Positions 3,066 to 33,642 of a stretch of 33,642 nucleotides of DNA are shown here, piece by piece. Within the stretch, counting starts at the first letter, position 1; every line of letters begins with the position of its first letter. A program made the position numbers and the translations under genes. The notes beneath the pieces are model-generated. The model saw only the letters and a list, made by a program, of their open reading frames with translations, searched no databases and had not been told where the DNA came from. Source of the stretch: an uncultured Christensenella sp. (GTDB taxonomy: Bacteria; Bacillota; Clostridia; Christensenellales; UBA1242); contig CASFHZ010000003.1 in the NCBI GenBank assembly GCA_949294585.1, forward strand, positions 1 to 33,642. Direction: 5' to 3'.

Positions 3066-3067
3066 TT

Positions 3068-3095
3068 AAAAAAACAACTCATTGAGTTGTTTTTT
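3068..3095. terminator. Bidirectional intrinsic terminator
   Basis: AAAAAAACAACTC-ATT-GAGTTGTTTTTT between the lipoprotein stop and the convergent TspO-remnant stop. Confidence 0.85.
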
Positions 3096-11781: not shown

Positions 11782-11810
11782 AAAAAACGAGAGGAACTTA
11801 TTCCCCTCGT
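11782..11810 (-). terminator. Intrinsic terminator of the giant-gene operon (hairpin A)
   Basis: Minus-strand RNA ACGAGGGGAA-UAAG-UUCCUCUCGU followed by a U-tract. Confidence 0.8.
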
Positions 11811-11834
11811 CATTAGTGTTAGGACCAAATAAAA

Positions 11835-11987
11835 TTAGACTGCCGAAAAACAAGTGAGGCGAGGCTCGTAAAATACCCAAAAGCAGGAGTTTAGTTACCT
11901 AAATGACTGTTTTTGGGTGTTTTACAGTAAACAAAGCAAGAAAAAATTTTCTAATTTTTTCGGTCACGCCGTTTTTCGACAGTCTAA
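11835..11987. mobile_element. MITE-like non-autonomous element / structured intergenic repeat
   Basis: 17-bp terminal inverted repeats TTAGACTGCCGAAAAAC / GTTTTTCGACAGTCTAA (1 mismatch), internal hairpins at 11868-11925 and 11940-11961, no ORF, more GC-rich than its flanks. Confidence 0.65.
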
Positions 11988-12018: not shown

Positions 12019-15000
12019 CTAATTTGTCATAACTACCCCTTGTGTTTGAACATTGATATATCCATAACATTTATCTGGAGTTTGACTATTGAATGAGAAT
12101 GCTTTGCCATTTATTAAAATGTCATAGTTTAAGTTGTCATCAAAATTAATATTTTCGGTGTTTAAACCTTTATAATTTAACCAACTTAAATATGTGTTAA
12201 ATTCTTTTGCAATACCATTATCATCTAAGCCATTTCTCAAATTAGAAATTGTTAAATTAATATTTGTGTAGATATCAATTTTGTTTGTGCTTTGTGAACT
12301 TGAAAGTGTAATTTTGCTTGCCCAATAAGAACTTGAAGCAACATTTTCGTATCCACCAATTAGTCCACCAGCCCAAACATTGTAATTTATACTATCAGCA
12401 TCAATTCCACTTGTGCCATAAACACTTATAGTTTTTGATGTTAAATTTGTGTATAGTTTGATATCCTTAAAACTTAATTTGTTGTTTTCCAATGCTTCGC
12501 CGTCAGTGTTGTAGCCACTTATAACACCAATTAAACCACCAACATAAACATCAATCGTTGAAGTGTCGGTTGCTGGTTTATTTAATTGCAATGTTACATA
12601 ACTATCAGTTGAACCAACGATTATGTTTGACATTATCACATTAACATTTGCAGTTTGATTTGCAACAAGTTCTCCAACAACTGCACCAACTGCTTGTCTT
12701 GCTTGAACATCGCCATAAACATAGCAATTTTCAAATGTTGCACTTTGAAGAACTTTTCCTGCAATACCTCCAACAACTTTAACTGTTAGTGATTTATCAA
12801 CAACAACATTTTCATATATAGTGCAATTGCTTATTGTTCCATTTCTTACTATTCCTGCAATTCCACCAATTGCAATAGGTATTCTTGGCTCTAGTTTAAA
12901 CAGGTCATAACCTTCAACATCTTCACCTTGTTCAACTACCACATTTGTCAATTTACCTCTTACATCACCTGCAATTAAACCACCATATGCACTTGCTCTT
13001 ACAAAGTTTTTGTCTGAGTAGATTGGCATTAATGTTATGTCGCTAACTTCAACATTTCTTCCAATTCCACCAAACATTAAACCACTAACCATTCCTATTG
13101 AAGCAACTTCGCTATTTATGCTAACTCTTTGTAATTTGCCTTGTCCTCCAACATAGCCAATAACTCCACCAGAATATGCAACCTTGCTGTTGTCACCACC
13201 AATTTCTTCATATAAAATTTCGTTTTGTGCACTTTCCGATGTCCAGTCACTGCCCATATATGTTAAGTATGCATTTGCAGAAGCAGAAGATGATATGTTT
13301 TGAATGTCAAATGCTGAATTTGTTATTCCAAACACACCTCCAACAATATCTCTACCCAAAATTACAATTCCATCACTGTTTTGTGAGTATCCATCAACTG
13401 TTATGTTGTAAACATATGCTCTTTGAACCGTTCCCGCAACTGTACCAACATTATATGCATTAGGCAAGTTGATGTATTTTGGTACAAAAGTTAGGTTTTG
13501 AATTGTTGCATATGTGCTAGAATTTCCTATTTGAGCAAAGAAGCCACCACTGTATAAACTTTCATTTGTGTTTATTGAAAATCCAGAAATTTTAAGCCCA
13601 TTTCCCTCAATATATCCTGTTATTACAGTTCTATACAAATTGCTAACAACAACACCTTCACTTGAATAATCAATATCTCTAACAATTCTATAATTTAAAG
13701 AGTTCTCATCTTTGTATGAACCATTAATTATTTCTGCTTCTAGTTGTGTTGCCGAATATATAATAATTGGGTTATATATTGAACCTTCGCTTGCGTATAT
13801 GCTTTCAATTGGTTTATAGGTATAAATAATTTCTCCTGTTTCTTCGTTTACATTTGATGTGTCAATTTCAACTTTGCTATAAGCCAACAAATTTGCAGAA
13901 ACAAGTTGAGGTCTGTTTGCAACAAATTGTTGCACTGTGCCGTTATATACATAACTTTCACAAGCAATATATTTGCTGTATTCAAATTCTGATGGGTTTA
14001 TTGTATCTGAAACATTATAGGTTTTTGAATCATTATCTGTTGGATAGAACCACACACCTTTGTTTTTATCACCGTTTGTGTTAATGATAAACTCAGAGAA
14101 AAGTTTTTCGTTTTGTATTATGTTATTTTCAACAACATATCCCGTTGCAAACTCTGCAAGAGTTGTTGCCCTAAGCACATCACTGCTTAAATTATCATTT
14201 GATTGATTTATGTTAACATTAAAGTTTGTATCTTTTAAGAAATAACAGTGTTCAATTATTGCATCAGTTGAATTTGTTATAAAGAATGGATAGTTTTCTG
14301 TGTCTTTATCACCAAGTTTTGATGTTGTGTAACACCTTGAAATTTGTCCATCATTAATGCACACAAATCCTGAGTTTCTTGAAGATGAAATAACAGGAAT
14401 ATTTGCATAACTATCGCTTATTTCGCCCGAATTGCTATATGCGAATGCACCTGCAATTGAAGATGCCCTAACAATGTAATCACCATCATCGGCATACATA
14501 TAAATAACACCTTCACTATATTTACCTTCTATGTAACTTAAAATAATTTTACCATTATTTATTGTTACAAATCCACCCGTTGAGTTATTTACATTTGTAC
14601 TTGAATTTCTTATTAAACTATTTGTTACATAACTGCTTGAAACGTGTCCGTTGTTAACTGCCACAAATCCTGCAAGGTTGGCTCCCGAGGACTCTATTTT
14701 TACACTAACTCTACAATTTGTTATATATCCATTATTTGTTCCAACAAAACCAGAAACATATGATGTGTTTGTTGCTGAAATTGAAGCAGAGTTTGTAACT
14801 TTTAGAGCAGTGTTAAGATTTGACATTGTAACCATACAGTTTGTTATGGTTCCGTTATTTTGTGCTGTTAAAAGTCCAAATATCAATGGTGATGTTGATG
14901 TTAAATTGTTAAATTCCATCATCACAGTGCCATTGCCTTGAATGTCTATTATTAAATTTTCTATGACTGTATCTTGATAAATTTGTTTAAACAAGCCAAA

Positions 15001-18000
15001 TTGATTTACATTTTGATAATTTCCATAATTACCTGTAAAAATAATTTTATTATTGTTTCCATCAAGTTTTTTAATGTCAACATCAATTGGATTAAAGTTT
15101 GATGGAATAACTATATCGTCCATAAGAACATAGTAATTTCCAGCACTCATATTAAGCAAATCTTCTAGGTCGTAAATAGGGAATGCCGATTCTTCTGATG
15201 TTCTTTGATTAACAACAACATTAAATTCTTTTATTTTTGTAATATCAACATCTTCATATTGTTCATTTACAACTTTAATGTATCCACCACTGTATTGCAA
15301 TGTTGCAGAAATACCAAATTGGAATAGGTTTTCTCCAACATAGTTTGGAATAACCTCAAAGTTTTCCTTTATTGTTACATACTGATTATCCAAAGTTGTT
15401 GTGCTAGTTAAAAATTCGTATGTATCAGAAACTTTATAATAGAATGTTGCATTTTCCTTTAAACTTTGTTTAAGTTGTTCAACTGCATTTTGTGCATTGC
15501 TTGAGTGTTCAATTTCAAGTTTATCAATCATATAATCTCTTATATCAACTGCATTTTTAACACTTAAAACCAAGTTGTTATCGCTAAACAATTCTTTAAT
15601 ATCCAAACTTTCCAAAACATATTCAACAACTGTACAAACAATAAATTTCTTTGAACTTTCAACTGTTTGTCCATTTACAACTCTTCTTCCATAATATGTA
15701 ATTGTGAAATCAACACCTTCTTGGTTTGATATATAGTTAATAGAATCAGAAATTTGCAAGTAGTATATTCCATTTTCTTTTGTTATTGTTCCATAAGGTG
15801 AATTGCATTCTATTACAATTTCATTTTCGTTGTATCCAACAGAAGAAACATTTAATGCATATGAATAACCTCTTGCAACATAATAACTTTTTGATGTTGA
15901 TGTTTCATCTTTTGCTTCTTTGTTTGAAATACTAACATCAATTGTTTTATTAATTGCAATAGTCAACACTTTTTGTTGTTGGGAATAAACAATTTCACCG
16001 TTTTCATTATAGAAATTAATGTTAAGAGTAACAGAATCGCCTTCAACAACATTTGTTGCCAATCTGTATAATACTTTTAAATCTCCACCTTTTATTGAAG
16101 ATTTCAAAACCCTAATTCCATTTGCTGTGAAATAGCCTTCTGATGAAACTATTGCTTGATCGGCGTTTTGATATTCTTGCAACAAACCAAATAAAACAAT
16201 TTTTCCACTTTGAATATTTGAGTCTGCGTTTGTTATTTCAATATATGAATAGTCTGCAAATTCTGGCATTACAACCGTTCTTAAAATATTGACTTCTCCA
16301 GCAGTTATTGTATCTGTTTCTTGCATTGTGTAACTTGTGTTATAAATAACATTTCCCTCTGGTGTTGAACCAATAACAATATTTTCATTGTCTGCGAACG
16401 AATAGTTTTTAACAATTACACTTGTTAATGGTTGAGATAGATAATTTACATTAAGAACTTTTATTGCCATTCCATCTGAACCACTGAAAATAAACTGATA
16501 TTCGCCTGTTCTAATTCTATTATCTGTATTCATTGATATTACATAATCAATATAATATTTGTTACTTTCACCACTCACTAAACTTGCATTGCTTTTTGTG
16601 ATGTTAAAATAGTATTGAATTGTACTATTATCGGTTATGTATTCACCTGTTTCTTTGTAACTTACATACAAACTTAAAACATCGTTTACATCATCAGTGT
16701 AGTATTCCACTCTCAACTTGATTGTGTCACTTGGAACAACTGTTACATTTATTTTATCCAATGAAATTGAATAAATGCCTTGTGTGTATTTCATAGTTAA
16801 TTCAAAGTTGGATTGGTCTTTTTCTGTAACAAAAACATAATCGCCATTAACTTTTGTCAAATATCTTTTGTCATTTTCTGCAACATTTAAGTATATATAG
16901 TATTCTATTTTTTCTTGTTCTGAATTTGAACTTCCATTTCCTGTTAAAATTATTGAACTTCCAGATTGTGTAATTTTTACATAGTCATTTCCAACAATTT
17001 CCAACTTAACATTTTGGTTTTCAACTGTTTCAATTATTGTATTTCCTGCACTAAATTCGCTTTGGAATTTTGGATAAACACTAAATGAATTTCTGTTGGA
17101 TAAACTAATTACATCTGTTTGTAGAATTGATGTGCCAATTCTGTCTGGAGTTGTGTAGAGTTCCAATCCTGAAATGTAATTTGTAACAATAACTCTTAAT
17201 GTTATTTTATCATCATAGTTTAAAAGTGAAGTTATTGTTATTTCAACATAACCTGTTGAGTTTAAAACAAGTTGTCCTTGTGCAGATATTGATATAACTG
17301 ATGTTGCACTAGATTGCATACTAACTTCAACATTGTCATCAAAAATGTCACTTGGCAAATTTTGAGTGTTGTATTTTTCAATGTATGTTTGTTTTGTTGA
17401 ATCAACTGCCTTATAGTACATTAAAACAATAGTTTTGTTTGGATATTTTTCAATATTAAACAAAGAGTCTAGTGTTTGAATATTACTTCCGTTGTCGAAT
17501 TGTTTTCCAGTATAAGACAAACCACCTTCTTTTGTTTCAATTTGAACAATATCTCCGTAGTAGTTAGCCAAATTCATTGCAGTTCCATAAGTTACAACCG
17601 TTCTTTTGAAGTATGTTTCTGCAATGTTTTCTGTGTATGTTGGAGTTGATGTGTTTTTTGCATTCAAAATTGCATCGTATTTTGTTCCAAAGTTTGAAAT
17701 AATCAAAGATGCATCTTCGCCAATTTTTGTTCTTGTGTCAATTGCTTGAACTTTGTTATCTTCAATAACTCCAGCACTAACTTGACCAACTAAACCTGCA
17801 ACATAATCTTTGCCTCTAACAAAAACTCGTGCAGTGTTGTTTAAAATTTTACCGTTTTCTATTGCACCAACAAGTCCACCAACATTATCTTTTGAACCGA
17901 TGTCCACAATTCCAGAAACTAGCAAATTAACAATGTTTCCATTCTCGTTATATCCAACTGCTCCACCAACATACGATGCATTAATTGAGTTGTTTACAAC

Positions 18001-21000: not shown

Positions 21001-21594
21001 GTTTGGATTAAACACACTTGTAGCTGTTATTGTAACAACATCTGGTGAATCTTGTGTTGCCACAAATGTGTTGTTATCCAAAACATTTTCTTCATAACTA
21101 AATGTTAGTTGTTTTTGAGAAGAAATTACATTTGACATTGGATAAAAATTAAACATATCACTTGAAAATGTAATGCTTTCTCCCCTTAAAACATACAATG
21201 ACAAATCAGTTTTTAACGCAAACGAATTAATTGGCTCATAAATATCAACGGGAATTAACAATGTTTTATTTCCCTGCAAGAGTGTAATAGTTAGTGTTGT
21301 GCTACCACTCATTAAAGATTTTACCTTTATTCTAAAAGTTCCATCTCCCAAGTTTTCTATTTGTGTTTTGTCTATTTGTGCAATGTTTTTATCAAAGTTA
21401 AAGTCAAAGTCAATTTGTGTTTCAAAATAGTTTTCAACAGAAATATCATAAGTTTGTTCTTCACCCAAACTTAATTCAATGCTGTCGCTTGAAAAATGGA
21501 GTGCGAATTTGCTAAAATCCTCACCACAGCCAACAAACATTACTGTGCATAATGTAATTATAAATAAATTAACCATTAATAAAAATTTTTTCAT
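12019..21594 (-). CDS. Giant surface lipoprotein (3191 aa) with Ig-like (Big_2-like) repeats and three GLUG-motif beta-helix modules
   Basis: Signal MKKFLL...MFVGC (Cys23). Ig-like signatures VDPSNAT, IMPNNATNK, IKALKVGTANYTL. Module caps GDGTQNNPLHI, TSEESAFPIY, EGSIYNPIII, and many VGGxVG/GGIAG repeats. RBS GGAG/AAAGGA at 21606-21597. Confidence 0.9.
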   Translation of the reverse strand: MKKFLLMVNLFIITLCTVMFVGCGEDFSKFALHFSSDSIELSLGEEQTYDISVENYFETQIDFDFNFDKNIAQIDKTQIENLGDGTFRIKVKSLMSGSTTLTITLLQGNKTLLIPVDIYEPINSFALKTDLSLYVLRGESITFSSDMFNFYPMSNVISSQKQLTFSYEENVLDNNTFVATQDSPDVVTITATSVFNPNLNVNFQVKVLNKITLVDTSLSLDDNVLQTVEENPDSYIQILTNDENEFKKTLTFSYQANSIYQYEVLSEKNALYIETYQSSDYENTIFIDIQHNNLKNITSDNLIIRVSYKDYDAYYVDLSYRVEMFTVPQNIKINGQKEYDEIVDLFDNQLDSTKKEVLLSVDPSNATYDTIKISFLIAKTNPSTLETTYTNVDYETIKQYICVTYNGVEIQNEQEIDNLSIPVVYYGRAVMPASVGDYICIRFECISQLTEKPVYNEIKVVVHKSATNFYVDSDKYQNSTIYLKNGDEVEFDGFVVVEPDAYIGKITAIPDFLNSGYVEVSQVADNVAKLKIKALKVGTANYTLILSSGISTRIKIVVKEELNISDFMLYISSVNSDAVAEVTYKNVLEQETLNSVALRGINAEFEVSSNIDFDLIDDDMYSFSLVSENNDVIQVGNNNRIKALVADDNVYTITVTLNTKKIENFALVDDVVNNTDYSFTVTCFNPISSFLITGLNSGDMEGEYSSQVDVYDVNTVGYLDRLMSEVTFKLYVDGKELDSIQIANQVEWDFSISYEWSESLKAYILTESGSITYGYFYPNELKFVCDAQGEPSGSFKIEAIISEYGKHLNSTVQINVEEYVKVDGVWLENYMDQVYLDSINKEVILYPYIMPNNATNKNYVVWFEPSLDTSSSVVQLEYNSDYIKLKYSGVGGGSGILHIVPTSKYIDDYGNYDYSLDIEVKVGDGTQNNPLHISSWEEFKKIDLSKYYVLDSIIDAGNEAIEPLGELTGGIKGVNVINGNAENVGGIVNLNIKLSKDVDGSSYYGLFTKVAQNALISNLTISGHIEIDSTTKHSYIGVICGENNGVIKNVSITLSTSDVYASGDYQTYLGAVCGKNNGLIITDINQRQAGEQIKDYDNEKRVNGELIDNISVESTNGYINEYYESYAPASTLMVYMPEGELFNLKLSNGGETYYFGGIAGYNNGLVKFRYDEEINKYNYYGTSCVVYLDNEVYNQDGTVVNNSINASYVGGAVGYNENGNIVNLLVSGIVDIGSKDNVGGLVGAIENGKILNNTARVFVRGKDYVAGLVGQVSAGVIEDNKVQAIDTRTKIGEDASLIISNFGTKYDAILNAKNTSTPTYTENIAETYFKRTVVTYGTAMNLANYYGDIVQIETKEGGLSYTGKQFDNGSNIQTLDSLFNIEKYPNKTIVLMYYKAVDSTKQTYIEKYNTQNLPSDIFDDNVEVSMQSSATSVISISAQGQLVLNSTGYVEITITSLLNYDDKITLRVIVTNYISGLELYTTPDRIGTSILQTDVISLSNRNSFSVYPKFQSEFSAGNTIIETVENQNVKLEIVGNDYVKITQSGSSIILTGNGSSNSEQEKIEYYIYLNVAENDKRYLTKVNGDYVFVTEKDQSNFELTMKYTQGIYSISLDKINVTVVPSDTIKLRVEYYTDDVNDVLSLYVSYKETGEYITDNSTIQYYFNITKSNASLVSGESNKYYIDYVISMNTDNRIRTGEYQFIFSGSDGMAIKVLNVNYLSQPLTSVIVKNYSFADNENIVIGSTPEGNVIYNTSYTMQETDTITAGEVNILRTVVMPEFADYSYIEITNADSNIQSGKIVLFGLLQEYQNADQAIVSSEGYFTANGIRVLKSSIKGGDLKVLYRLATNVVEGDSVTLNINFYNENGEIVYSQQQKVLTIAINKTIDVSISNKEAKDETSTSKSYYVARGYSYALNVSSVGYNENEIVIECNSPYGTITKENGIYYLQISDSINYISNQEGVDFTITYYGRRVVNGQTVESSKKFIVCTVVEYVLESLDIKELFSDNNLVLSVKNAVDIRDYMIDKLEIEHSSNAQNAVEQLKQSLKENATFYYKVSDTYEFLTSTTTLDNQYVTIKENFEVIPNYVGENLFQFGISATLQYSGGYIKVVNEQYEDVDITKIKEFNVVVNQRTSEESAFPIYDLEDLLNMSAGNYYVLMDDIVIPSNFNPIDVDIKKLDGNNNKIIFTGNYGNYQNVNQFGLFKQIYQDTVIENLIIDIQGNGTVMMEFNNLTSTSPLIFGLLTAQNNGTITNCMVTMSNLNTALKVTNSASISATNTSYVSGFVGTNNGYITNCRVSVKIESSGANLAGFVAVNNGHVSSSYVTNSLIRNSSTNVNNSTGGFVTINNGKIILSYIEGKYSEGVIYMYADDGDYIVRASSIAGAFAYSNSGEISDSYANIPVISSSRNSGFVCINDGQISRCYTTSKLGDKDTENYPFFITNSTDAIIEHCYFLKDTNFNVNINQSNDNLSSDVLRATTLAEFATGYVVENNIIQNEKLFSEFIINTNGDKNKGVWFYPTDNDSKTYNVSDTINPSEFEYSKYIACESYVYNGTVQQFVANRPQLVSANLLAYSKVEIDTSNVNEETGEIIYTYKPIESIYASEGSIYNPIIIYSATQLEAEIINGSYKDENSLNYRIVRDIDYSSEGVVVSNLYRTVITGYIEGNGLKISGFSINTNESLYSGGFFAQIGNSSTYATIQNLTFVPKYINLPNAYNVGTVAGTVQRAYVYNITVDGYSQNSDGIVILGRDIVGGVFGITNSAFDIQNISSSASANAYLTYMGSDWTSESAQNEILYEEIGGDNSKVAYSGGVIGYVGGQGKLQRVSINSEVASIGMVSGLMFGGIGRNVEVSDITLMPIYSDKNFVRASAYGGLIAGDVRGKLTNVVVEQGEDVEGYDLFKLEPRIPIAIGGIAGIVRNGTISNCTIYENVVVDKSLTVKVVGGIAGKVLQSATFENCYVYGDVQARQAVGAVVGELVANQTANVNVIMSNIIVGSTDSYVTLQLNKPATDTSTIDVYVGGLIGVISGYNTDGEALENNKLSFKDIKLYTNLTSKTISVYGTSGIDADSINYNVWAGGLIGGYENVASSSYWASKITLSSSQSTNKIDIYTNINLTISNLRNGLDDNGIAKEFNTYLSWLNYKGLNTENINFDDNLNYDILINGKAFSFNSQTPDKCYGYINVQTQGVVMTN

Positions 21595-21624
21595 TTTCCT
21601 TTCTCCATTTTTCTTGCTTAAAAC

Positions 21625-24600
21625 CTAATTTGCTCCAAATGTTAAGTCTATTCTAGTTCCATTAACATCATACTCACTTATAATATAACATACTTGTTCA
21701 TTGTCGCTATATTGATAATTTTGATTTTGAGTAAATGTATCATTTTGACTTGGAATATATTGAACTAACACACCATCAACAGATGTAATTCTTGTAGTTA
21801 AAATTTTATTTTCATCATTATATACACCTTCTGTTGTGCTAAATTTTTGAATAATTGTATCTTTTATTGTAATTATACCATTAACAACTGCAATTTCTCT
21901 TGTTAGAGTTGTTTGAGTGTAAATTGTTGTATCATTAACAACATCACTAGTTTCAACTGTAATTGTCAATGGTTCGGTTGTTGCACTTGCTTGAACTTCT
22001 TTTCTAACAAAAATGTATTCTCTAACAACAATATCAGTTTCTGCTTTTATTGTTGCATCGTTGTATAAAAGGTACCCATTCACAACAACACCACCCAAAC
22101 TGTATTCGGTGTAATCATCCAATTTTTTAACATTTAATGAACCAACAATTTCGTATCCATCAAGTGTGAAATACATTGTTTTATTGTCAACATTTATGTT
22201 TACTTTTACAGCATAACTATTGTTAAATGGCAACAACTCAACAACACTTGCTTCACAACCATTGTTTGAACTTGAATACTTAATTGTTATAAATTTACCT
22301 GTTTCATCAATTTTAAATTTAAACAAATAATCATATCCGCCATTACTTGAAACCATTTGTGTGTAGTTGTACTTAATGAATGTCTTTTCAATTGTAGCAT
22401 CATATACATCTTTAACAGTGATAAATGTTGTGCCCATATTATAAACAAAACCAGAGTCTATATCAAATCTAATTGTTGTATTGCCTATTAGTTTTATTAC
22501 AACACAATCAACCACACTATCAACAAGTTCTCTGTTTATGCTAGCAATTGTTGTTCCTGTTGTTATTAAGAGCGAATTAAAGAGGTCAACATCACTCTTT
22601 GTTAAAGCTCCATTTTCTTCAACAAATAAACTAAATTTTGAACTGCTCGCATCAATAACAGCTTTGTTTTCATCAAGCATATCAAATTCTTCATTGTTGC
22701 CAATTGCATTGTATTGATATAGATATACCGAATTATTTTCATTAAACAATTCCAAAACTCTAATCATTGTTAAATCAGTGTAAATTCCCACCAATTCTTT
22801 TTCATTGTCACTTGTTGAAATTGATATGTATGTTTCACCTATATCAAGTTCTTGTTTTAACTCAAATTTTGCATATCTGTTAAAACTCATACCAATTTCA
22901 TCAACATTTTCAAACAGGTTCTTAATTGTTACTGTTTGTGTTTCATTTTTTATTGTGATTGAGTTAGTTGGTATATTTTCAATTATTGTATAGGTATTTT
23001 CACCTAATGTAATTGTATATTGCATTTCACTTATAACAAGTTTTCCGTTTAAGATATCAACAACAAAATAAACACTGTTATTTTTTGAATTTTCAATTCT
23101 TAATGAATTTCCTTGAACTGATATTGAATATGTGCCTTCAAGAACAAATGGCATATCATTATTTCCATAAGTAAATGTTAAATATGTGTAATTATCATTA
23201 TCTGCATATTGCACACTTGCTTTGTTGCCATCTGGGCCAAAGGTTAATGTTTGAACATCGACAAGTCTAAATGTATCTTCTGTTGTTGAAGTTTTTTCAA
23301 GAATATATTGCAATATTTTTCCATCACTTGTAAATACATAAGCTTCAAAAACTTCGCTGAATAATGATGTTTCATAACTGTAATTTAATCTGTTAGAAAC
23401 AACAATATAGTTTCCACTAAGCCCTTCAACAACTGCATTGTTCACAACATTTGCCTTAGCAGAATTGTTGTAACTTAAAGTAATTTCGTTTACAACTTCT
23501 TCATTTGTTTGAACTTCACTTTCATATGAAATATCAAATATAAATCTATTAGAAGTTATGCTTTCTAGTGTAATTGTGTATGTTTGTGTTGTTAATTCTT
23601 GCTTTTTGTTAATTTCTCCACTTGAATTTATTTCATAATTTATTGTTGTTAAATCAACTTTTATTTCTTCACTAAATTCATTTGTTTCAGAAATTTCGTT
23701 TAGTGGCAATAGGTCATTTGAAAATTCAATAATTGTTTCAGAAATTGGGAAGAAGAAATTATTTCTGCTTGAATTTGGACTTATTTGCTCAGATGATAAG
23801 TAATATATTTTTCCTAAATACAATGTCTTTGAATTAGATGTAATGAAAATATAATCAGTGTAATTATATAGTCCCTCTTCATTTGTTTCACAAGATATTA
23901 TATAAGGTTTATATACTGCATCTAAAACATTAATTTCATTACCCTCAATTGTTTTTAAATTTACTTCAATCTTTTCAGAAGTTTCATATGATGTCAATTG
24001 AATTTTATTTTCGCCATATACAACATAAACATTTTCTATTGTTTTGTTTTCCAAATTATCAAGATTAAGTGATTTTATGTTGTTGTTATTTGTTAACTTC
24101 CAACCATTATTATCTGTTAAACCATTGAATGTAATAATATCAATGCTTGTGCTAATATCATTTTTTATACAATTAACAGTTAAACTGTAACCATTTGAAT
24201 TATCAGAAGTGATATTTTTATATTCAAATGTATCTATTTTATCTTGTGAATTTACAGATATGCTTCCACCATTAGAAGAAATTTGAACATCTGTTGAATC
24301 TGTTTGAGATATTATCATATTTAGGTCAATTCTCTGACTTCCATTTGAATCAATATACAAATCAGATTCAGTTAATGGAGTAACAGTTGAAGCATTAATT
24401 CCAAGTGGATAGAAATTAGATGTTCTGTTTGCTAGTGGATAAGCCTGATATTTATACAAGTTGTATATCAAATCAGAAGATGAGTATTTAAAGCCAGTAA
24501 CATATTCCATTTTTACATCGTTAACAAGGTTATAATCATTGTTGTCAATAGTTCCTGTGATTATTATCTTATAAACTCTTTCTTCATAATTATATAGATA

Positions 24601-27600
24601 TGTTTCATCTTCTTGTGTAGAAATAGTTTCCTTTATAACAAATAACAAATACTCCTTTTGGAAGTTATACATTGTAGAAAGTTTGCCATCTACATAAGAA
24701 TTTTCAATATTTTTGTTAATTTGAGCTTTAAATTCATACAAATCAATTTTTAATATGTCTGTGTAATCTGTTTTGATATTACCGTTATTATCCTTATATT
24801 TACCATAACCTTCGGTGTAAACAATTTGTTTTGAACTTGTTAGTAGTTCATTATAGTTATTATTTAGCTGATTTTCTGTTGAGATAGAAGATTCATAGTT
24901 AGGATTTGCAATAGATAGTGGTTTTGTGTTTGTTTCGCAATTTTCAATTAAGAATGCATTTGCATCAACATTATTTGCAACACAAGAAGATGCATAAGCA
25001 CTATTTGGATAAACACTTCCACCAATTCCAGATAAAATGTAAACTTTTTGTCCAGAAACATTAGATTGAATTGTAACATTTGTCATTGAAACATTTTCTT
25101 CGTTAAATGTTTGAGCAAAGGCGAATAACCCTGCTGAATATGTTGCACTTTGTGGATTGCTTGTTTTTGCTGAGATTAGTGATAAACCAACATTAACTTC
25201 GTTTAAGCTTATCTTTTTATCTCCTTGATTTAAGTGTCCAACAACCCCACCAGTTTTTATGATTAAGTTATTAGATTCAACATCAATTATTCCATTGTTA
25301 ACATTAACATTGCTTAAAATTAAGTCTGTTTGGTCAACATAACCAATAACTCCACCAACAACTGAATTTAATGAATTTGTTGTAGTGATTGCAAAATCAC
25401 TTGTTTCAAAAGAGTCTCTAGCAATTTCAACATTAGTTAAAGTAACATCTGAATTTGCTACTTTCCCTATTATTCCACCAATAGCATTGTTTTCATTTGA
25501 AACACTTGTTGAAGAAGCTATTAACTCTATATTAATTTTTTCAATTGTTAAATTATTGATGTTTACACTGCAATTATTGCTTACATTTGCAATAACTCCA
25601 CCTATGTTTGACACAGCTTTTGATATTGTTCTATTTCCAAAATTATCAACTTTATAGTCTTTATAATAGAAGTATAAAGCAACCTCATCGGTTATGTTAA
25701 TTTTACCATTTTCAACAACTGTTCCAACAACACCACCAACATTAATATTGTTTGTTGTGTAAATTTCAAAATCACTGCTATAAGACATTGTTATATTTTC
25801 CATTGTCAATGATTTTACATATCCAAATAGTCCCAAAGATGTTTCATCTGATGTATTGCTGTAAGATAATTTAATGTTGCTTAGTTGTGTTGTTTGGTCT
25901 GTGTGTGAAGTTGTACCAACAAAACTTCCATTAAATGGACTTGAAACTGTACCAATAGGTGTAATTGCAGAATTAAATGAAATATCATTTAACACTTTAA
26001 CTGTGTAGCCACCTTTAATTAAACTGTTGCATAGTTTATGGAATTTTTCAGTATTAATTGCATTGACTTCTATTCCATAAGATTGAATATATTCTCTTAT
26101 TGCAGAGTTATTAATAAGACTATCTTTGTCAACAATCAAACCATTTTCATCTGTTGGAATTATTGGAACTAGGTCATTAATTAATGACGTCATTGTTCTA
26201 AAATCTTTTTGAGCACTGTATCCTTCGCCATTTTGTGAGCCAATATTAATAATTGCGTTGTCATCATCGTCAAAAGATATGTTGCTATTTAGCATACTAT
26301 CTAATGATGTTTTTGCTATTTCTTCTGATGTAGTTAAAATCCATTCACCATTGTATTGCGACCAGTTGTCACCCAAATCTTCTTTTTCAATGTCATCGCT
26401 TGTAACTGCTTTTGTGTAATTTTTGTAATCAAAAGAACCAAAGCCAGTGTTGTAAACTAATCCATAAGTTTTAAACACATTTGATATAACCTCTTCGCCA
26501 TCTTTTATAGTAGTTGCAACACTATTGTCCATAATTCCATATTGAGAAGAACCATTAATTTCAATTTCATAAACAGATGAAATTGTATCTTCATTGCCAC
26601 TATATACAGAGTATGCATTTACTTTTGTTGCACCTTCTCTACCCAAACCAATACTGTCAAAATAGATGTCATCTACATACAAAAGTTTAGAGCTTTCTTG
26701 TGAATAAATATATTTTCCATCATCAGTTTTATTTAATCCCATCCAACTATTGCCAGTAAACATAGTTAATAGTGATTTTTGTTTATCAACATAGTTTGGA
26801 GTTCCTGCAATTTGGTGGTCTTTACCTTCACTGTTTCCTTCAAGTATATAACCTATCTTTTTACCTCCAGTTATAACTTCAATCAATCTACTAAATACTT
26901 CTGCTATGTTTTTCGGAGCATCTATTGTTCCCCAAACTTGACAATCGTTAAAATATTGTTCATAAACATCTTTATAATTTGTGTTTTCAAAATAATATTC
27001 AGGAATTTCAATGGAACGAGATAATATCTTTATTGATACAAATGCCATAGCCAAACCACTAGCCATAATACTAGTTGCAAATACACTGATGATTGGGAAA
27101 ACGGTTCCACTAATCAACAATGGTGCAAGTGATGCAACAACTGTTGCTACTACAGCCATACTAATCTGCAATCTGTTGTTTAATTCTGTTCCATCAACTT
27201 CCAAATAAGCATATGGACTTCTTGCGTTTATTCCACCAGTAACTTGTGAATAGTTAATGCAAGAATTTACGCTTTGATATTGGTTTGCAATACCTGCAGA
27301 ATATGCTTGTTGCTTAGATTGTCTTAAGAATAGTTTTGAATATCCTTCTTCGTTTCCATTAACATAAACATTTGGCAAATGATTCATTCCTTGTTGTTGG
27401 TCAAAACCATCTCCAACAGGTTCAAATTGATATTTTGCATATGATGTAATAGACATTGCTTTATTGTAACAGTTTGTTATATTCCCACCATATCCACTTA
27501 TACCACCTGCATATGTAGTTATAAATGAGATTTGATTACCTACCACTAAATTAGCATATTCTGTTAAATAACAATTGTCTATTAAAGTTGTTGCATCTTG

Positions 27601-30600
27601 ATATTCGCTTATATCATTCATTTCCAGTGCTGAATTAACACCAACATATCCAACAATTCCACCTGCATAGAGAACTAAATCTTCTCCATTTTTAGACAAA
27701 TCACTAGTAAATACATCTATTTTTGAATTAATGCTTGAATATGATATTGTTCCAGACAATTGTTGTCCAACAATTCCACCAAAAATTATTGTGTTTCCTA
27801 TTGGAATGATATCAGACAAAAATTCCAAAGAAATGTTTTTATTTAACGCTGAATTTGTAACTGTACCACCATCTAAGCAACCAACTAAGCCTCCAATAAT
27901 CCAATTTGAAACATAACCAATGTAAATTTTAAATGTATTGTTATTATCTGAAGTATTAGAAATTGAGCAATTAGTTAAAATAGAATTTGTTTGTAACAAT
28001 CCAATGATTGCCCCATAGCAAATCTCTGATACATTTTCTATATCAAATGCATCATTTTCATCAATAAATGCATTTATTCCAGTTATTGTCGAATTAACAG
28101 CATTGTTACCTAAAGAACCTAAATACACTTTATCATTATTACCATAATAATAAATTATTAAAGAATCTATGACTATATTTTTTATAGTAGAATTTTTAAT
28201 TTCGTTAAATATTCCACCATTTTCGGAAAGTAGATTTTTTATTGTATGAGATCCAGAGGAAACACCATCAAATCCATTTAAAACAATGTTTTCTACATTT
28301 TTAGATTTCCAATCCAGTGTTTTTGTATTAGAACCAATATCCTGAACTAAAACATAATATATTGAAATTTCTTCTGAACCATTAGCAATTTGATTTAATT
28401 TACCCAAATTTGGAATTTGGTATGGATTGTTGCTTGTACCGTCACCTGTATTGTGATGCATATAATCAATGCTTGCATAAACACCATCACTAAATGAACC
28501 ATAACCATACGCATAATTTACATTTAACGACATATTTCCTTTATAAATAGAAGTTAAATTTTCATTTTTATAGTTAACAGCCATCTCATCTGTTGTCTTT
28601 TCTGATTCACCACCAATTTCAACATTTGATTCAAGTGCTATTTTATCGTAATAATTTGAACTATTATTATCAAATACATAATAAGTGGCGCCTTTTGATT
28701 TTAAATTTATTATTTTGCAAATAGTGTAACAATATTTTACATCTCCTGGGCCAAAAGCATAAACCAAACCAATGTATTCTGTTGAATTTTCTTCTGAATT
28801 TTGCAACGAACCAGATGCATAACAACTTAAAACCGCTCCACTATTTTTTCTAACAAATCCAGCTATGCTAACTTCATCTTTGTTTCCTTTAAAATGAGAA
28901 ATCATAGAACTTGCAACATAACTTTCTTTAATTAAACCTGCATTTTCGGATACAAAACCTGAAACTGGCAAACTAGATTTAATTATTCCGTTTATAACTT
29001 TGTTTTCTGTGTTACTTCTTCCTCTAACATTGCAAGAGTAAATAATACCACTGTTATATTGAACAAATCCAGCAACATCATTGTTTAAAGTTATAGCAGT
29101 GTTGTCAACATTCACTTGTTTATCACCAGCACTATCTTGAGCGTTTGTATAATTAACATAAGACACAACACCTGCAACATAACTATTTTTATCAACAGCG
29201 CCAATTGGACTTGTTTGTTCGCCATTGTATTCAAATGAAATAACTGCTCCATCTGCAACTAAAACGGAATTCTTTAAAATGCCAATTTTTGTTAAAATTG
29301 AAGAATTTTGCAAGTAGATATATTGTCCATCAATAATCTCTTCACTTGGATTTAGACTTAATAGCATAGGATTTAGTTTTGTCCCCTCTGTAAATAAATC
29401 ATCACTCCACAAAACAAAACTATCTTTTTCATTGTCTTCGTTTACAATTCTATTTGTCAAAACATTTCTTGCTTCAATTAATAAATCATAAAGAGTAGTA
29501 TTTTCGCCAAAGTCATTATTACTTTGAGTGCATAATGTGTATATATGTGAATATTTATTTGATGAAACAACCCCATCATTGTCATCTTTCACATTTTCTT
29601 TTGAATATGAACCAACAATTGCATTTGCTTGATAGTTAGAAGATAAATCTTCGTCAAGTTTGTTATAATGTGTGTTTAAACAAATGTTATTTGCAATATT
29701 TAAACTATTTGTACCAGTACTGTCAACTTGTGCACAAATTCCACCATAAACATAACTATCCATTAATGTAATATCAGTTGTTACAGATTTATCAAACTCA
29801 CCATTGTCACTATTGTAAGCATATGTTGGATACACATTTCCTGCAACAACATTGTTGTTTACATCACACTCGCCAGAAGTTATTCCAATAAATCCAGAAG
29901 TGTATAAGAATACACTGACATCTGTTGGTGTACTCCATTTTTCGTTTGTAACTTTTACAACATTTTTAACTTCACCAGTAAATGCAGAGTTTGTTATGTT
30001 TGAACTGTTAATTCCTCCACATAAACCTGCCAAATAAACACTGCTATTTGCCTCATTAAACAATTGAATAGAATTGTAGTAAATAGAATTAGAAATATTG
30101 TAATTTGAAAGATATCCAACAAGTCCACCAACATAAACAGAATCTCCATTAGATTTTTCATCTTTTGTTTTTACTGTTATGTTTAAATAAGATTTTACTT
30201 TAAAAATATCTCCATTTTCACCTTCAAGTGTTCCTGCATATCCTGCCAAAGAACCAACATATGAGCCATTGACATTTTCAACAACAAATACACTATCACT
30301 GTCGCCAACTGTACAATTTTCTATGCTACTTGTGTTTATTGTTCCAACAAGTCCACCAACACTAACTCCAGCATTTACATTGGTAGATTGAATTTTAATG
30401 TTTGGCAAAATACAAACATTGGTTAAATCACTATTTTCTATGTTTCCTGCAAAACCACCAATATTCACTTGGTTTAACTGAATTTTTCCATTAACACTAA
30501 CATTAGATTGAATTTGTGCATCAATAGCTGTTTGAACATTAACATTGTTAATATTTCCAAACAAATATCCAACATTTGCGTTTTTAATTGTAACAACATT

Positions 30601-33600
30601 AGTTGAATTTGAAATGATATTAACATTTCCATCAATAGGAACTTTTGTATTATTATCACTTGTTACATTTGTTAAATTAAACACCGTTCTGTTTTGGTCT
30701 TTGTTGCTTGTTCCAATTATGCTTCCACCAATTAAACCAATGTTTGACATATTGTTTAATCCAATATTTGCATTTACATTAATATTGCTTGAAAGCACTG
30801 AAATATTTGAAATATAAGTATCAGTTGAAAGTGATGCTTTACCAAAAACCAAACCTGCTTCTATGTTGTTTTGAATGCTAGATGTAACATTTATATTACT
30901 TTTTAATATTTTAATATTATCAAAAATAGTTAAACCTGTTGCCTCTGCACAAACAACACCAATTATGTTATTTCCCTCTGTGACATTTGCATTGATATCA
31001 GAGAATTTTAGATTTCTAAATTCTGTGTTGTTTGCAGTTCTAACAAATGCAGAATTTTTGCTTAAACTGCTATTAAGTGAAATATTTTTTTCGTATTTAA
31101 CTTCAAAATTACTAAAATATGCACCGTTAGTTGTTTCAAACAATGCTCTATTTTGATTAACTGCAAAGATAAATCCATAAGTTTTTTCGCCGTCTTTACC
31201 TTTTAAGGTGTTAGAGAACCCAACAATTGGTGAAATTCTCTTATCAATAACAATGTAAGCACTATCTCTTGTTATTATATTGTTTCCATCATCTTCTGGG
31301 TCAATCACAAATGTAACATCACCACCCGATGTACGCATTAATTCTATATCACTTTGATTTCTTATGTATATCACATTGTTGTGATAGCCAAACAGAATGT
31401 GTGGGAATAGTTCATCATCATCTCTTTGCCAAGAATTAGAATCCCATTCGTTTCCTTTAAAGATAGAGTCAAACAATTCACCATCATCACCAATTCCTGT
31501 TATTTTTGAGAAAGATGTCACTTTTTCAAGATTGTCATTGTCATTATAGTTATATATAACCTCATTATTTGCAAAAACAATATCTTCTTTTGACAATGCA
31601 GCAACTTTATCAAAACTAAAGTTATCAGATTTTAATAGTGAGTAAACTTCGCTTTCGTTATTTTCATCAGCAAGCCAAACTCCCCAATAGTTTACTGCAT
31701 TTACTTTTGTTAAAGAGCAATCATCAATAGATTGTCCAATAAAACCACCGGCAACTTTTGCTCTTACATCTCCTGATGCATAAACTTCCTCAACAGTTAA
31801 ACTGTTTGATGTTCCCTTTTGTTCAACAAAACCAATTGCACCACCTGCGTATTCGGCTTTTTGGTTGACAACATTTAGTTTTGAATAAGACTTTTCTATT
31901 TTTCCACTCTTATTAAGTCCAACCAAACCTCCAATGGCAATAGGAGCATAATTATCTGCGATGAATAACTGTTCGTTTCCTCTGTCAACAGAATAATCAC
32001 CTTTATAATATTCATCTATTGAATCTTCAATTTGGTCTTGCAATTGTTCTTCACTTTCCGAGCGAACTTGTCTTAAATAACCCATATTATATCCAACAAT
32101 TCCACCTGCAAAACCGTTATAAGATAGAATACCTTGCGTTGTGTAATCTTCAACCATAGCAAGTTCAAATAAAGCATCTTGAACAATTGTTAGAGGACCA
32201 ACATATCCAAACACGCCACCAACAGTTCCACCTGTTATTTGCATTGTACCTTTCGTTTTAAGCATTGTTGCATTTGCATTAGAAGAAACTTCGGCATTTG
32301 CAAAATTGTAGTTATTTATTGATGTTTCTGTGTAGCAATCAATAACACCAATAATTCCACCTGCATATGAAACATAAGAATTTAAAGAATCGTTTGTTCT
32401 TGAATATGCATTATATGATGTATATGAAGAACCTGCAATATTATTATATGATTCAGGATACATAACTGCAGTAACACTTATATCCTTTGTTGATAAGTTA
32501 GAAACATAAGAATTTCCAACAACTCTACCTATTATTCCACCAACAATATTTTTACCTCTAACGGTAACACTGTTTGTGTTTTCATAAGCAGAAGTTAAAT
32601 TCACTCCAACAACAGTAGAATCTGAAACAGTTCCTGCAAGTGCACCAACATATTTAATGTTCTTTGCTTCGATACCAAAAATTTCACCTTCTGCGTTTGT
32701 TGCACCAAGAACAATATCAACATTCATCACAATTGCACCATCAGTTATTTTACTGAAAATTCCAAAGCCTTCAACACTGCTATCAACACCGTTATCAGAC
32801 AGTGCCAAACCATTAATTGTGAAGCCGTTTCCATCAAACTTGCCAATGCCAGATTTATTGCCTGCATCTTTGTATATGCCAGTAAGTGACATACTAGAAG
32901 AAGCAAGTCTGTATATTCTTGTTTCGTTTTCTTCTGTTAAAAGTTCTTGCAAATTGATGTCATTAACAAGTCTGTAACTTCCAAAAATTTGTCCTTTTTC
33001 TTTGTTGACATAATTTCTAGCAGAACCTTTTGTTCCACCCAAAACTTCATCAAATTCTTTTGCATCTCTAATTATTATAGGGTTGTTTTTTGAACCATAT
33101 TCAAAACCATCAACATAGTTAAGCACTGCCATTCCATTTTGTGATTCACTATATGCACTTTCATATCTTAATGAAACTGCTATGTCATTTGGACTAATCA
33201 GTTCTGGGCCTGTTGTTGTTATTTGCCAAATTCCATCTTCTGCATCACTTGAAGCAAAGTTAAATCCATAGTAGTATGATTCAGCAGTTATGGAGTTTAC
33301 AAGTTTTGCACCCTCGCCATATGCTTCTTCAACAATAATGGAAGAATCTTCATTTGCAAGTTCATCATAGTAATATGAATTTTCTATATTGCCATAATTT
33401 TGATAATTACCTCTTTCATCAACGCCAGCAAAGTTCATTTGTGTTGTTGTTGAACCAATAATTCTTGAAAGAGAAAGTGAAGTGTAAATATTTGCATTTT
33501 CATTGTTTATATAAACAAATCCTGCACTTGACCTTCCTGGGTTATTGCTTGTGTTTGTTAAAGTTATATTTGAATAACTATCTCTTATCTCGCCAGAATT

Positions 33601-33642
33601 AGAGTAGATAAATCCTGCACTTATTCCTGATGTTTCAATTCC
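21625..33642 (-). CDS. Giant GLUG-motif beta-helix surface protein, 5'-partial (>4005 aa)
   Basis: The frame is open from the window edge (GIETSGISAGFIYSNSGEIRDSYSN...) through 33438, so the listed Met is internal. Repeated GGxxG/GLUG rungs, caps YGSKNNPIII, EGTKLNP, GDGTSNNPYQI, and TPIGTVSSPFNGSFVG. The stop lies 30 bp before the next giant gene. Confidence 0.9.
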   Translation of the reverse strand, partial: GIETSGISAGFIYSNSGEIRDSYSNITLTNTSNNPGRSSAGFVYINNENANIYTSLSLSRIIGSTTTQMNFAGVDERGNYQNYGNIENSYYYDELANEDSSIIVEEAYGEGAKLVNSITAESYYYGFNFASSDAEDGIWQITTTGPELISPNDIAVSLRYESAYSESQNGMAVLNYVDGFEYGSKNNPIIIRDAKEFDEVLGGTKGSARNYVNKEKGQIFGSYRLVNDINLQELLTEENETRIYRLASSSMSLTGIYKDAGNKSGIGKFDGNGFTINGLALSDNGVDSSVEGFGIFSKITDGAIVMNVDIVLGATNAEGEIFGIEAKNIKYVGALAGTVSDSTVVGVNLTSAYENTNSVTVRGKNIVGGIIGRVVGNSYVSNLSTKDISVTAVMYPESYNNIAGSSYTSYNAYSRTNDSLNSYVSYAGGIIGVIDCYTETSINNYNFANAEVSSNANATMLKTKGTMQITGGTVGGVFGYVGPLTIVQDALFELAMVEDYTTQGILSYNGFAGGIVGYNMGYLRQVRSESEEQLQDQIEDSIDEYYKGDYSVDRGNEQLFIADNYAPIAIGGLVGLNKSGKIEKSYSKLNVVNQKAEYAGGAIGFVEQKGTSNSLTVEEVYASGDVRAKVAGGFIGQSIDDCSLTKVNAVNYWGVWLADENNESEVYSLLKSDNFSFDKVAALSKEDIVFANNEVIYNYNDNDNLEKVTSFSKITGIGDDGELFDSIFKGNEWDSNSWQRDDDELFPHILFGYHNNVIYIRNQSDIELMRTSGGDVTFVIDPEDDGNNIITRDSAYIVIDKRISPIVGFSNTLKGKDGEKTYGFIFAVNQNRALFETTNGAYFSNFEVKYEKNISLNSSLSKNSAFVRTANNTEFRNLKFSDINANVTEGNNIIGVVCAEATGLTIFDNIKILKSNINVTSSIQNNIEAGLVFGKASLSTDTYISNISVLSSNINVNANIGLNNMSNIGLIGGSIIGTSNKDQNRTVFNLTNVTSDNNTKVPIDGNVNIISNSTNVVTIKNANVGYLFGNINNVNVQTAIDAQIQSNVSVNGKIQLNQVNIGGFAGNIENSDLTNVCILPNIKIQSTNVNAGVSVGGLVGTINTSSIENCTVGDSDSVFVVENVNGSYVGSLAGYAGTLEGENGDIFKVKSYLNITVKTKDEKSNGDSVYVGGLVGYLSNYNISNSIYYNSIQLFNEANSSVYLAGLCGGINSSNITNSAFTGEVKNVVKVTNEKWSTPTDVSVFLYTSGFIGITSGECDVNNNVVAGNVYPTYAYNSDNGEFDKSVTTDITLMDSYVYGGICAQVDSTGTNSLNIANNICLNTHYNKLDEDLSSNYQANAIVGSYSKENVKDDNDGVVSSNKYSHIYTLCTQSNNDFGENTTLYDLLIEARNVLTNRIVNEDNEKDSFVLWSDDLFTEGTKLNPMLLSLNPSEEIIDGQYIYLQNSSILTKIGILKNSVLVADGAVISFEYNGEQTSPIGAVDKNSYVAGVVSYVNYTNAQDSAGDKQVNVDNTAITLNNDVAGFVQYNSGIIYSCNVRGRSNTENKVINGIIKSSLPVSGFVSENAGLIKESYVASSMISHFKGNKDEVSIAGFVRKNSGAVLSCYASGSLQNSEENSTEYIGLVYAFGPGDVKYCYTICKIINLKSKGATYYVFDNNSSNYYDKIALESNVEIGGESEKTTDEMAVNYKNENLTSIYKGNMSLNVNYAYGYGSFSDGVYASIDYMHHNTGDGTSNNPYQIPNLGKLNQIANGSEEISIYYVLVQDIGSNTKTLDWKSKNVENIVLNGFDGVSSGSHTIKNLLSENGGIFNEIKNSTIKNIVIDSLIIYYYGNNDKVYLGSLGNNAVNSTITGINAFIDENDAFDIENVSEICYGAIIGLLQTNSILTNCSISNTSDNNNTFKIYIGYVSNWIIGGLVGCLDGGTVTNSALNKNISLEFLSDIIPIGNTIIFGGIVGQQLSGTISYSSINSKIDVFTSDLSKNGEDLVLYAGGIVGYVGVNSALEMNDISEYQDATTLIDNCYLTEYANLVVGNQISFITTYAGGISGYGGNITNCYNKAMSITSYAKYQFEPVGDGFDQQQGMNHLPNVYVNGNEEGYSKLFLRQSKQQAYSAGIANQYQSVNSCINYSQVTGGINARSPYAYLEVDGTELNNRLQISMAVVATVVASLAPLLISGTVFPIISVFATSIMASGLAMAFVSIKILSRSIEIPEYYFENTNYKDVYEQYFNDCQVWGTIDAPKNIAEVFSRLIEVITGGKKIGYILEGNSEGKDHQIAGTPNYVDKQKSLLTMFTGNSWMGLNKTDDGKYIYSQESSKLLYVDDIYFDSIGLGREGATKVNAYSVYSGNEDTISSVYEIEINGSSQYGIMDNSVATTIKDGEEVISNVFKTYGLVYNTGFGSFDYKNYTKAVTSDDIEKEDLGDNWSQYNGEWILTTSEEIAKTSLDSMLNSNISFDDDDNAIINIGSQNGEGYSAQKDFRTMTSLINDLVPIIPTDENGLIVDKDSLINNSAIREYIQSYGIEVNAINTEKFHKLCNSLIKGGYTVKVLNDISFNSAITPIGTVSSPFNGSFVGTTSHTDQTTQLSNIKLSYSNTSDETSLGLFGYVKSLTMENITMSYSSDFEIYTTNNINVGGVVGTVVENGKINITDEVALYFYYKDYKVDNFGNRTISKAVSNIGGVIANVSNNCSVNINNLTIEKINIELIASSTSVSNENNAIGGIIGKVANSDVTLTNVEIARDSFETSDFAITTTNSLNSVVGGVIGYVDQTDLILSNVNVNNGIIDVESNNLIIKTGGVVGHLNQGDKKISLNEVNVGLSLISAKTSNPQSATYSAGLFAFAQTFNEENVSMTNVTIQSNVSGQKVYILSGIGGSVYPNSAYASSCVANNVDANAFLIENCETNTKPLSIANPNYESSISTENQLNNNYNELLTSSKQIVYTEGYGKYKDNNGNIKTDYTDILKIDLYEFKAQINKNIENSYVDGKLSTMYNFQKEYLLFVIKETISTQEDETYLYNYEERVYKIIITGTIDNNDYNLVNDVKMEYVTGFKYSSSDLIYNLYKYQAYPLANRTSNFYPLGINASTVTPLTESDLYIDSNGSQRIDLNMIISQTDSTDVQISSNGGSISVNSQDKIDTFEYKNITSDNSNGYSLTVNCIKNDISTSIDIITFNGLTDNNGWKLTNNNNIKSLNLDNLENKTIENVYVVYGENKIQLTSYETSEKIEVNLKTIEGNEINVLDAVYKPYIISCETNEEGLYNYTDYIFITSNSKTLYLGKIYYLSSEQISPNSSRNNFFFPISETIIEFSNDLLPLNEISETNEFSEEIKVDLTTINYEINSSGEINKKQELTTQTYTITLESITSNRFIFDISYESEVQTNEEVVNEITLSYNNSAKANVVNNAVVEGLSGNYIVVSNRLNYSYETSLFSEVFEAYVFTSDGKILQYILEKTSTTEDTFRLVDVQTLTFGPDGNKASVQYADNDNYTYLTFTYGNNDMPFVLEGTYSISVQGNSLRIENSKNNSVYFVVDILNGKLVISEMQYTITLGENTYTIIENIPTNSITIKNETQTVTIKNLFENVDEIGMSFNRYAKFELKQELDIGETYISISTSDNEKELVGIYTDLTMIRVLELFNENNSVYLYQYNAIGNNEEFDMLDENKAVIDASSSKFSLFVEENGALTKSDVDLFNSLLITTGTTIASINRELVDSVVDCVVIKLIGNTTIRFDIDSGFVYNMGTTFITVKDVYDATIEKTFIKYNYTQMVSSNGGYDYLFKFKIDETGKFITIKYSSSNNGCEASVVELLPFNNSYAVKVNINVDNKTMYFTLDGYEIVGSLNVKKLDDYTEYSLGGVVVNGYLLYNDATIKAETDIVVREYIFVRKEVQASATTEPLTITVETSDVVNDTTIYTQTTLTREIAVVNGIITIKDTIIQKFSTTEGVYNDENKILTTRITSVDGVLVQYIPSQNDTFTQNQNYQYSDNEQVCYIISEYDVNGTRIDLTFGAN

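Follow-up and report, generated by a model that had tools for sequence, protein, structure and literature searches.

Two giant lipoproteins and a chromosomal type IV secretion system in a gut family, most likely UBA1242: a candidate cell-contact apparatus

Patescibacteria (CPR) use a type IV secretion system (T4SS) for epibiotic growth. It is chromosomal, lineage-wide and derived from monoderm conjugation, it comprises VirB4, VirB6, VirB3/PrgI, a PF18895 pilin and VirD4, it mostly comes without a relaxase, and it is found in auxotrophic genomes of ~1 Mb, according to the available part of the report (PMC12102498). The mating module of mycoplasma ICEs (CDS5, CDS14-17, CDS19) has a similar set of pilin-like, VirB6-like, VirB4 and VirD4 proteins. 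In ICEA a surface lipoprotein is essential and is suggested to make the cell contact, and chromosomal DNA moves toward the ICE-bearing cell (PMC6030558, in the portion available). Omnitrophota and the Chlorochromatium epibiont, which are partner-dependent bacteria, also encode giant proteins near secretion genes, and these are proposed, or shown, to act where cells touch (bioRxiv 2023.11.21.568195; 10.64898/2026.03.19.712371; both available in part). Dependent bacteria with giant surface proteins, and T4SSs that lack a relaxase, are thus both known kinds.

The family UBA1242 of the Christensenellales has been predicted to be an obligate symbiont or parasite, and no mechanism was named (PMC12306168). 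The main text of that paper mentions neither giant proteins nor a T4SS. We describe a pair of giant lipoproteins, A and B, and the T4SS of a gut family that is most likely UBA1242. Neither was found in the openly accessible main texts searched, and supplements may list the genes.

Genomic context of the A/B pair

The window, which is the whole 33,642-nt stretch analysed, is contig C3 of a 1.03-Mb genome (29% GC, 96% complete, 86 contigs). Giant lipoprotein B (3,191 aa) is encoded at 12019..21594 on the minus strand by an uninterrupted ORF in a table-11 frame. The C-terminal 4,005 aa of giant lipoprotein A lie at 21625..33642 on the same strand, in an ORF that is open at the contig end. The 30-nt spacer between them (21595..21624, minus strand) holds the ribosome-binding site of B, with GGAG/AAGGA preceding its ATG. 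The original prediction of two co-oriented giant ORFs 30 bp apart, with unbroken frames, a ribosome-binding site between them and hairpins after B, is confirmed. An artefact or read-through origin of the giant ORFs is ruled out, as relatives have them open too and their frames are unbroken under translation table 11. The adjacency claimed as an operon holds here, but the operon is not obligatory, because in some genera A and B are at least 16 kb apart or on different contigs.

More than one terminator-like hairpin lies 3' of B, and one of them (11786..11811, minus strand) has a U tract. Between the hairpins is a MITE-like repeat of ~150 bp with inverted ends (11827..11987), with 95–96% copies on contigs C51, C31 and C42 of the same genome. 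The rpoBC genes lie downstream of B and its hairpins. The rpoB gene (7764..11468, minus strand) has its own promoter-like site at 11678-11650, and it is the usual downstream neighbor of B (57 of 73 loci). Small genes nearby had been described as decayed. The small lipoprotein-like ORF at 2178-3065 and the 190-aa ORF at 3479-4051 are intact, and only 3066-3390 may be a gene fragment. None of the three has a family match or a counterpart in the loci compared. No tandem DNA repeats were found in the window.

The N-terminal part of A (~2,350 aa with a lipobox) lies in a 3'-open ORF on another contig (C72:19139-26206, plus strand). In six of six congeners a single ORF of 6,464-6,841 aa aligns to the C72 ORF and then, 2-3 residues on, to the window ORF. 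A single 4,858-aa ORF in one genome of another genus likewise spans the C72 ORF and then the window ORF. In all seven genomes B directly follows the joined A ORF. No direct overlap of C72 and C3 was found, and contigs from four sequencing runs did not show the joint, though records pass both ends. Because the contigs do not overlap and the joint is seen in no read, we infer the join in the source genome from the congener ORFs that span both parts. A would therefore be a lipoprotein of about 6,360 aa. Upstream of A at C72:17439-19139 is a conserved block that usually precedes it and reads, as we take it, like spoIIQ, acyl carrier protein and spoIIID. The acyl carrier protein-like gene is of note in a genome with no detected FabF.

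The source genome most likely belongs to UBA1242. A search with RpoB against plasmids gave a clostridial placement. Strong matches are confined to the family of the window. Some are to records under the names Ca. Caccovivens and UBA5489, which PMC8035907 and PMC12306168 assign to UBA1242 of the Christensenellales. Sequencing runs with this DNA are labelled metagenome, gut metagenome or chicken gut metagenome. To our knowledge, no member of UBA1242 has been cultured. The expectation of a small-genome Firmicute with metabolic gaps holds: ATP synthase, FabF and PurD were not found in the 96%-complete genome, in which 14 of 14 controls were detected and MraY is present. A and B take up 2.8% of the genome, and 11 large surface ORFs together take up 9.5%. 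Further giants (7,143, 3,668 and 3,257 aa and others) with MBG, Flg_new and Ig-like domains are encoded at C42:129-21557, C8:1543-12546, C9:5289-15059 and C29:9158-18447 and on C5 and C53; the C8 type is conserved in relatives.

Predicted lipid anchors, folds and hydrophobic hairpin

The lipoprotein signal peptide of B ends at Cys23 (21526..21594, minus strand; lipobox regex). The same regex finds a lipobox in the C72 ORF and in 10 of 11 full-length homologs, and the genome encodes LspA. From sequence, both proteins are probably exported by Sec and lipid-anchored. Only one of the two had been thought to be lipid-anchored; A carries its lipobox on the C72 part. The paralogy of A and B is real but weak, with 23–30% identity in patches.

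Searches of Pfam and NCBIfam put no family over cut-off on A or B, and a PDB sequence search likewise gave no match. LPxTG is absent from A and B, and HExxH is absent from both and from the 11 full-length homologs, as had been noted for the two window proteins. With structure comparison included, neither protein matches a characterised enzyme or adhesin over its full length. The proposal of GLUG/beta-helix and Ig-like repeats survives in its beta-helix part, by fold prediction rather than through Pfam. A run of Ig-like spacers at the N-termini is weakly predicted: weak Big_2 matches occur in 5 of 31 homologs, two of them over cut-off and none in the window proteins.

Fold models cover ~1,850 of the 9,550 residues of A and B, and they predict M26/GLUG-type beta-helices without a protease motif in both proteins. 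The C-terminal third of B (aa 2130-3191; 12022..15207, minus strand), modelled with 73 sequences, has pLDDT 88 and pTM 0.89 and forms two tandem beta-helix modules of this type. Its best structural match is 3n6z (Z 24.9, rmsd 2.6, 249 aligned), followed by 7uvk (Z 24.7). Foldseek alone returned nothing under 0.001 for the B model. Atlas neighbors carry Peptidase_M26_N and Glug. The modelled part of A (window-ORF aa 1700-2480; 26203..28545, minus strand) was folded with 15 sequences and reaches pLDDT 64. It contains an M26/GLUG-type beta-helix (Z 25.6 to 7uvk, rmsd 3.8, 299 aligned), and, after it, at low confidence, a beta-stalk that bears two hydrophobic helices at its tip. The N-terminal beta-helix typical of M26 IgA1 proteases and Zmp is found, with Z 21.9-25.6 to 7uvk and 7jgj. 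Their HExxH zinc motif and Peptidase_M26_C were not found in A or B by motif, Pfam or NCBIfam searches.

The beta-hairpin stalk is predicted to project from the end of the beta-helix in A (26638..27360, minus strand; pLDDT about 45-60). At its tip the sequence and the low-confidence model place a hydrophobic helical hairpin (window-ORF aa 2151-2207; 27022..27192, minus strand). The hydrophobic stretch predicted inside A is borne out at about aa 2158-2195 of the window ORF. All 13 aligned members of the genus have, by eye, a hydrophobic insert of ~20-55 aa between the same two conserved motifs. Its position is fixed in the genus, while its sequence is hypervariable and still hydrophobic; in four of four close pairs it is among the 1-3 least conserved of 110-321 windows. 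A profile of the hairpin module found matches in 5 of 81 genomes, each of them a member of one of the two genera that had supplied its sequences. Strongly membrane-like segments occur in 9 of 52 A-type sequences (five of the nine from this genus) and in 0 of 85 B sequences, a contrast that shrinks at looser thresholds to 15 versus 5 and then to 26/52 versus 20/85. Searched as part of the larger A model, the hairpin showed no likeness to a pore-forming or toxin fold among the matches listed, and the leads that Atlas returned for the hairpin module were all below 0.9.

In A of other genera, Gly/Ala-rich hydrophobic segments occur at varying positions (L174, L173, L181, L186, L189, L203, G292), and most are not matched by the hairpin profile. 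Several carry P-x-G-W, presumably the motif of polymorphic-toxin membrane domains. This motif occurs five times in A-type sequences and not at all in B sequences. A does not have the layout of a polymorphic contact-dependent toxin, a variable C-terminal toxin domain beside an immunity gene: its variable hydrophobic part is internal and B follows it directly.

Conservation of the pair and the T4SS of the family

A and B share a module whose profile finds matches in 65 of 80 family genomes, from 43 of 54 genera. Most of these genomes have two copies, and the ORFs are about 3,000-8,300 aa long. Among 300 genomes of the order, all 15 family members match at 1e-64 or better. Outside the family there are weak matches in 40 of 285 genomes, the best at 2.5e-17, and matches better than 1e-40 are family-only. 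No match to the module was found in 15 of the 80 family genomes, which include 3-4-contig assemblies (G340, G345, G361). Within the genus, 16 of 19 congeners have B; its identity is about 50%, against 90% for RpoB where compared. Four of 34 diverse A loci could not be scored. In 20 of the other 30 an ORF of >1,500 aa lies within 600 nt (one of these, at L171, is probably not B), and in four more a large ORF is slightly further off or cut by the end of the stretch. The pairing is conserved in most genomes of the family. A and B are under purifying selection, with dN/dS of 0.19-0.29 for A (four pairs) and 0.10-0.12 for B (two pairs).

Of 80 loci retrieved, seven are A-type and were set aside, and the neighbors were scored in the remaining 73. 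In 47 of them B is directly preceded by a gene for a PrgI-VirB4-type ATPase, and in 10 by A. The gap between virB4 and B is 130 nt or less in 30 of 37 loci. The 47 virB4-B loci appear to come mostly from one large genus and may reflect one rearrangement. In the source genome the T4SS genes are unlinked to A and B. A virB3/4 gene for the VirB4-type ATPase follows tuf (contig C75:3-1895; L133), and virD4, a PF18895 pilin and a 760-aa VirB6-like gene are found at contig C47:48-12940 (L138). The search for linked secretion or pilus genes thus succeeded at the level of the family, with a T4SS whose virB4 often adjoins B, and failed at this locus. For type IV pilus/T2SS ATPases there was one weak PF00437 match.

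VirD4 is present in 79 and VirB4 in 77 of the 80 family genomes, compared with VirB4 in 29 of 285 other genomes of the order. The PF18895 pilin was checked in the source genome, where it is present, in further genomes (present in five of five) and in the loci read. The nearest NCBIfam models are those of mycoplasma ICEs: NF045849 for the pilin, NF045848/NF045889 for the VirB6-like protein and NF045975 for VirB4 (under or just under cut-off), and NF045973 for VirD4 (over cut-off). In the loci read, the T4SS genes sit in housekeeping surroundings and usually occur in one copy. None of the relaxase families PF03432, PF18555, PF03389, PF01076 and PF02486 was found in the source genome. Among 81 genomes a MOBP relaxase is over cut-off in one and MobL in 16, and MobL matches adjoin second virD4 copies in G333, G351, G374 and G383.

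VirB4 and RpoB are conserved to the same degree in 37 loci that carry virB4, B and rpoB and represent one part of the family. The RpoB tree contains 19 of 20 strong VirB4 splits, and the converse holds for 18 of 22. As far as gene trees tell, this congruence shows vertical inheritance of the T4SS in one group of the family. A mobile ICE was considered and rejected on the near-universal distribution, the congruence with RpoB and the lack of a single recombinase-relaxase block. The features of a co-opted T4SS of the Patescibacteria type are found: chromosomal VirB4, VirB6, pilin and coupling protein, lineage-wide for VirB4 and VirD4, with none of five relaxase families in the source genome. The T4SS does not require a detectable A/B pair, since most of the 15 genomes without a match to the shared module keep the T4SS; G340, G345 and G361 among them have VirD4.

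Other large proteins also occur beside T4SS genes. A 2,532-aa giant with a C-terminal membrane anchor lies beside virD4 at C47:48-7643, and its homologs flank T4SS genes in G023, G090 and G348. In two other families virD4, a 2,500-aa protein, virB6 and virB4 form a block (G200:C8, L157-L158; G288:C21, L159); a separate ORF at G200:C3 (L168-L169) is about 6,300 aa long and matches GLUG weakly. In G340, which has no detectable A/B pair, two pilins, a 2,125-aa VirB6-like protein and a >1,876-aa protein directly after virB4 are encoded at C2:314129-330000 (L162-L163).

Proposed role and relation to known systems

We propose that A and B are long surface tethers that hold a partner cell for T4SS-mediated feeding, with a probability of roughly 55%. 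Exported by Sec and lipid-anchored, they would reach past the wall, by a rough length-based estimate on the order of 50–150 nm. The beta-helices would bind surface polymers or proteins of the partner, and in this genus the variable hairpin of A may insert into the partner membrane. The mostly relaxase-free chromosomal T4SS would then act across the contact, taking up lipids, nucleotides and other metabolites or delivering effectors. The partner is most likely another gut microbe, as we infer it. Counted together, retention in 65 of 80 genomes, purifying selection, the metabolic gaps, the T4SS, the virB4-B linkage and the variable yet hydrophobic hairpin argue for tethers, and the surface lipoprotein of ICEA supplies a precedent. 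The restriction of the hairpin module to two genera and its low-confidence model argue against them, and giant adhesins occur in free-living gut commensals too. Against close coupling of A and B to the T4SS stand its unlinked position here, the 15 genomes with no detectable pair, the virB4-B linkage being probably that of one genus, and the C47-type giant, which adjoins virD4/pilin in the source genome (G000) and in G023, G090 and G348 and is possibly the closer structural partner of the T4SS. Of the cell-contact apparatus first suggested for this locus, the small genome, the pairing and the secretion system stand, and the single lipid anchor and the obligatory operon fall.

The main rival, which we consider unlikely, gives A and B no tie to the T4SS: they would be adhesins of a generic sort, or a surface coat, directed at mucus, food particles, epithelium or biofilm, on a cell that scavenges metabolites from gut contents. 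Surface proteins of commensals often have M26/GLUG beta-helices and Ig-like domains, and the weak matches elsewhere in the order, the unlinked T4SS and the MBG and Flg_new giants, typical of adhesins, all agree with this. However, two copies are retained with fixed chromosomal neighbors over dozens of genera and animal hosts, unlike ordinary adhesins, which are patchy in distribution, and the hairpin and the virB4-B linkage are left unexplained.

It is improbable that the beta-helix modules act as glycan depolymerases or lyases, whether to open the capsule or wall of a partner or to digest dietary glycans. Lyases and tailspikes are the next structural matches of the modules (Z 13-17), and an alginate lyase promotes contact in the Chlorochromatium consortium (bioRxiv 10.64898/2026.03.19.712371, in the part available). 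The non-catalytic M26-type helices are nonetheless ahead by about 8 Z units. The 73 B sequences have no conserved Lys or His in aa 2130-3191, where conserved charged residues are mainly in repeated cap motifs and connectors, and HExxH is again lacking.

Less probable still is a tethered contact-dependent toxin or translocator, with the hairpin of A as a pore-forming or membrane-crossing cassette against competitors or prey. The hypervariable, hydrophobic, Gly/Ala-rich segments and the confinement of P-x-G-W to A-type sequences would suit it, but the hairpin is internal with ~1,800 aa following, no small immunity-like gene lies in the 30-nt gap, and the module is limited to two genera. It is very improbable that the T4SS is a domesticated conjugation machine by which cells of one species exchange chromosomal DNA, with A and B as mating-pair adhesins. 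Its parts are of the type found in mycoplasma ICEs, which drive chromosomal transfer (PMC6030558, as far as available), and a relaxase could have gone unrecognised, but five relaxase families were not found in the source genome. That almost every member keeps the T4SS in a minimal genome also points to a role in growth, like the one PMC12102498 reports for Saccharimonadia.

Beyond tethering, we tentatively entertain, with more doubt than belief, a wider view of UBA1242 as Gram-positive, spore-forming epibionts or parasites of gut bacteria that arrived independently at a Patescibacteria-style life. A captured mycoplasma-type ICE channel would be their core feeding conduit, A and B would select and hold the host, and the A hairpin would anchor in the host membrane. 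Conjugation machinery would then have been co-opted for a dependent way of life a second time, independently. The core T4SS and the family-specific giant lipoproteins make a concrete candidate apparatus for the predicted life on other cells, and A, B and the T4SS supply markers for imaging and co-culture.

Compared with the Patescibacteria, which share the chromosomal, lineage-wide and mostly relaxase-free T4SS and the small auxotrophic genome, UBA1242 are spore-forming Clostridia whose nearest T4SS profiles are those of mycoplasma ICEs and which carry 3,000-8,000-aa lipoproteins alongside. VirB3 appears to be fused to VirB4 here, a fusion that PMC12102498 did not find in CPR. The ICE mating module matches in its parts, but the UBA1242 system is not mobile, with its housekeeping neighbors, usually single copy and a tree that agrees with that of RpoB. 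None of the ICE lipoprotein families matches A or B, whereas in ICEA it is a surface lipoprotein that starts the contact (PMC6030558, available portion). With M26 IgA1 protease/Zmp and GLUG proteins (7uvk, 7jgj, 3n6z) A and B share the beta-helix fold (Z 21-25.6), and they differ from them by the absence of HExxH and an M26 catalytic domain, by tandem helix modules, by a lipoprotein anchor and by being 3-5 times longer than the solved chains. The giants discussed for Omnitrophota and the Chlorochromatium epibiont exceed 10,000 aa; A and B are much smaller, have other domains, are anchored as Gram-positive lipoproteins and are accompanied by a T4SS rather than T2SS/RTX.
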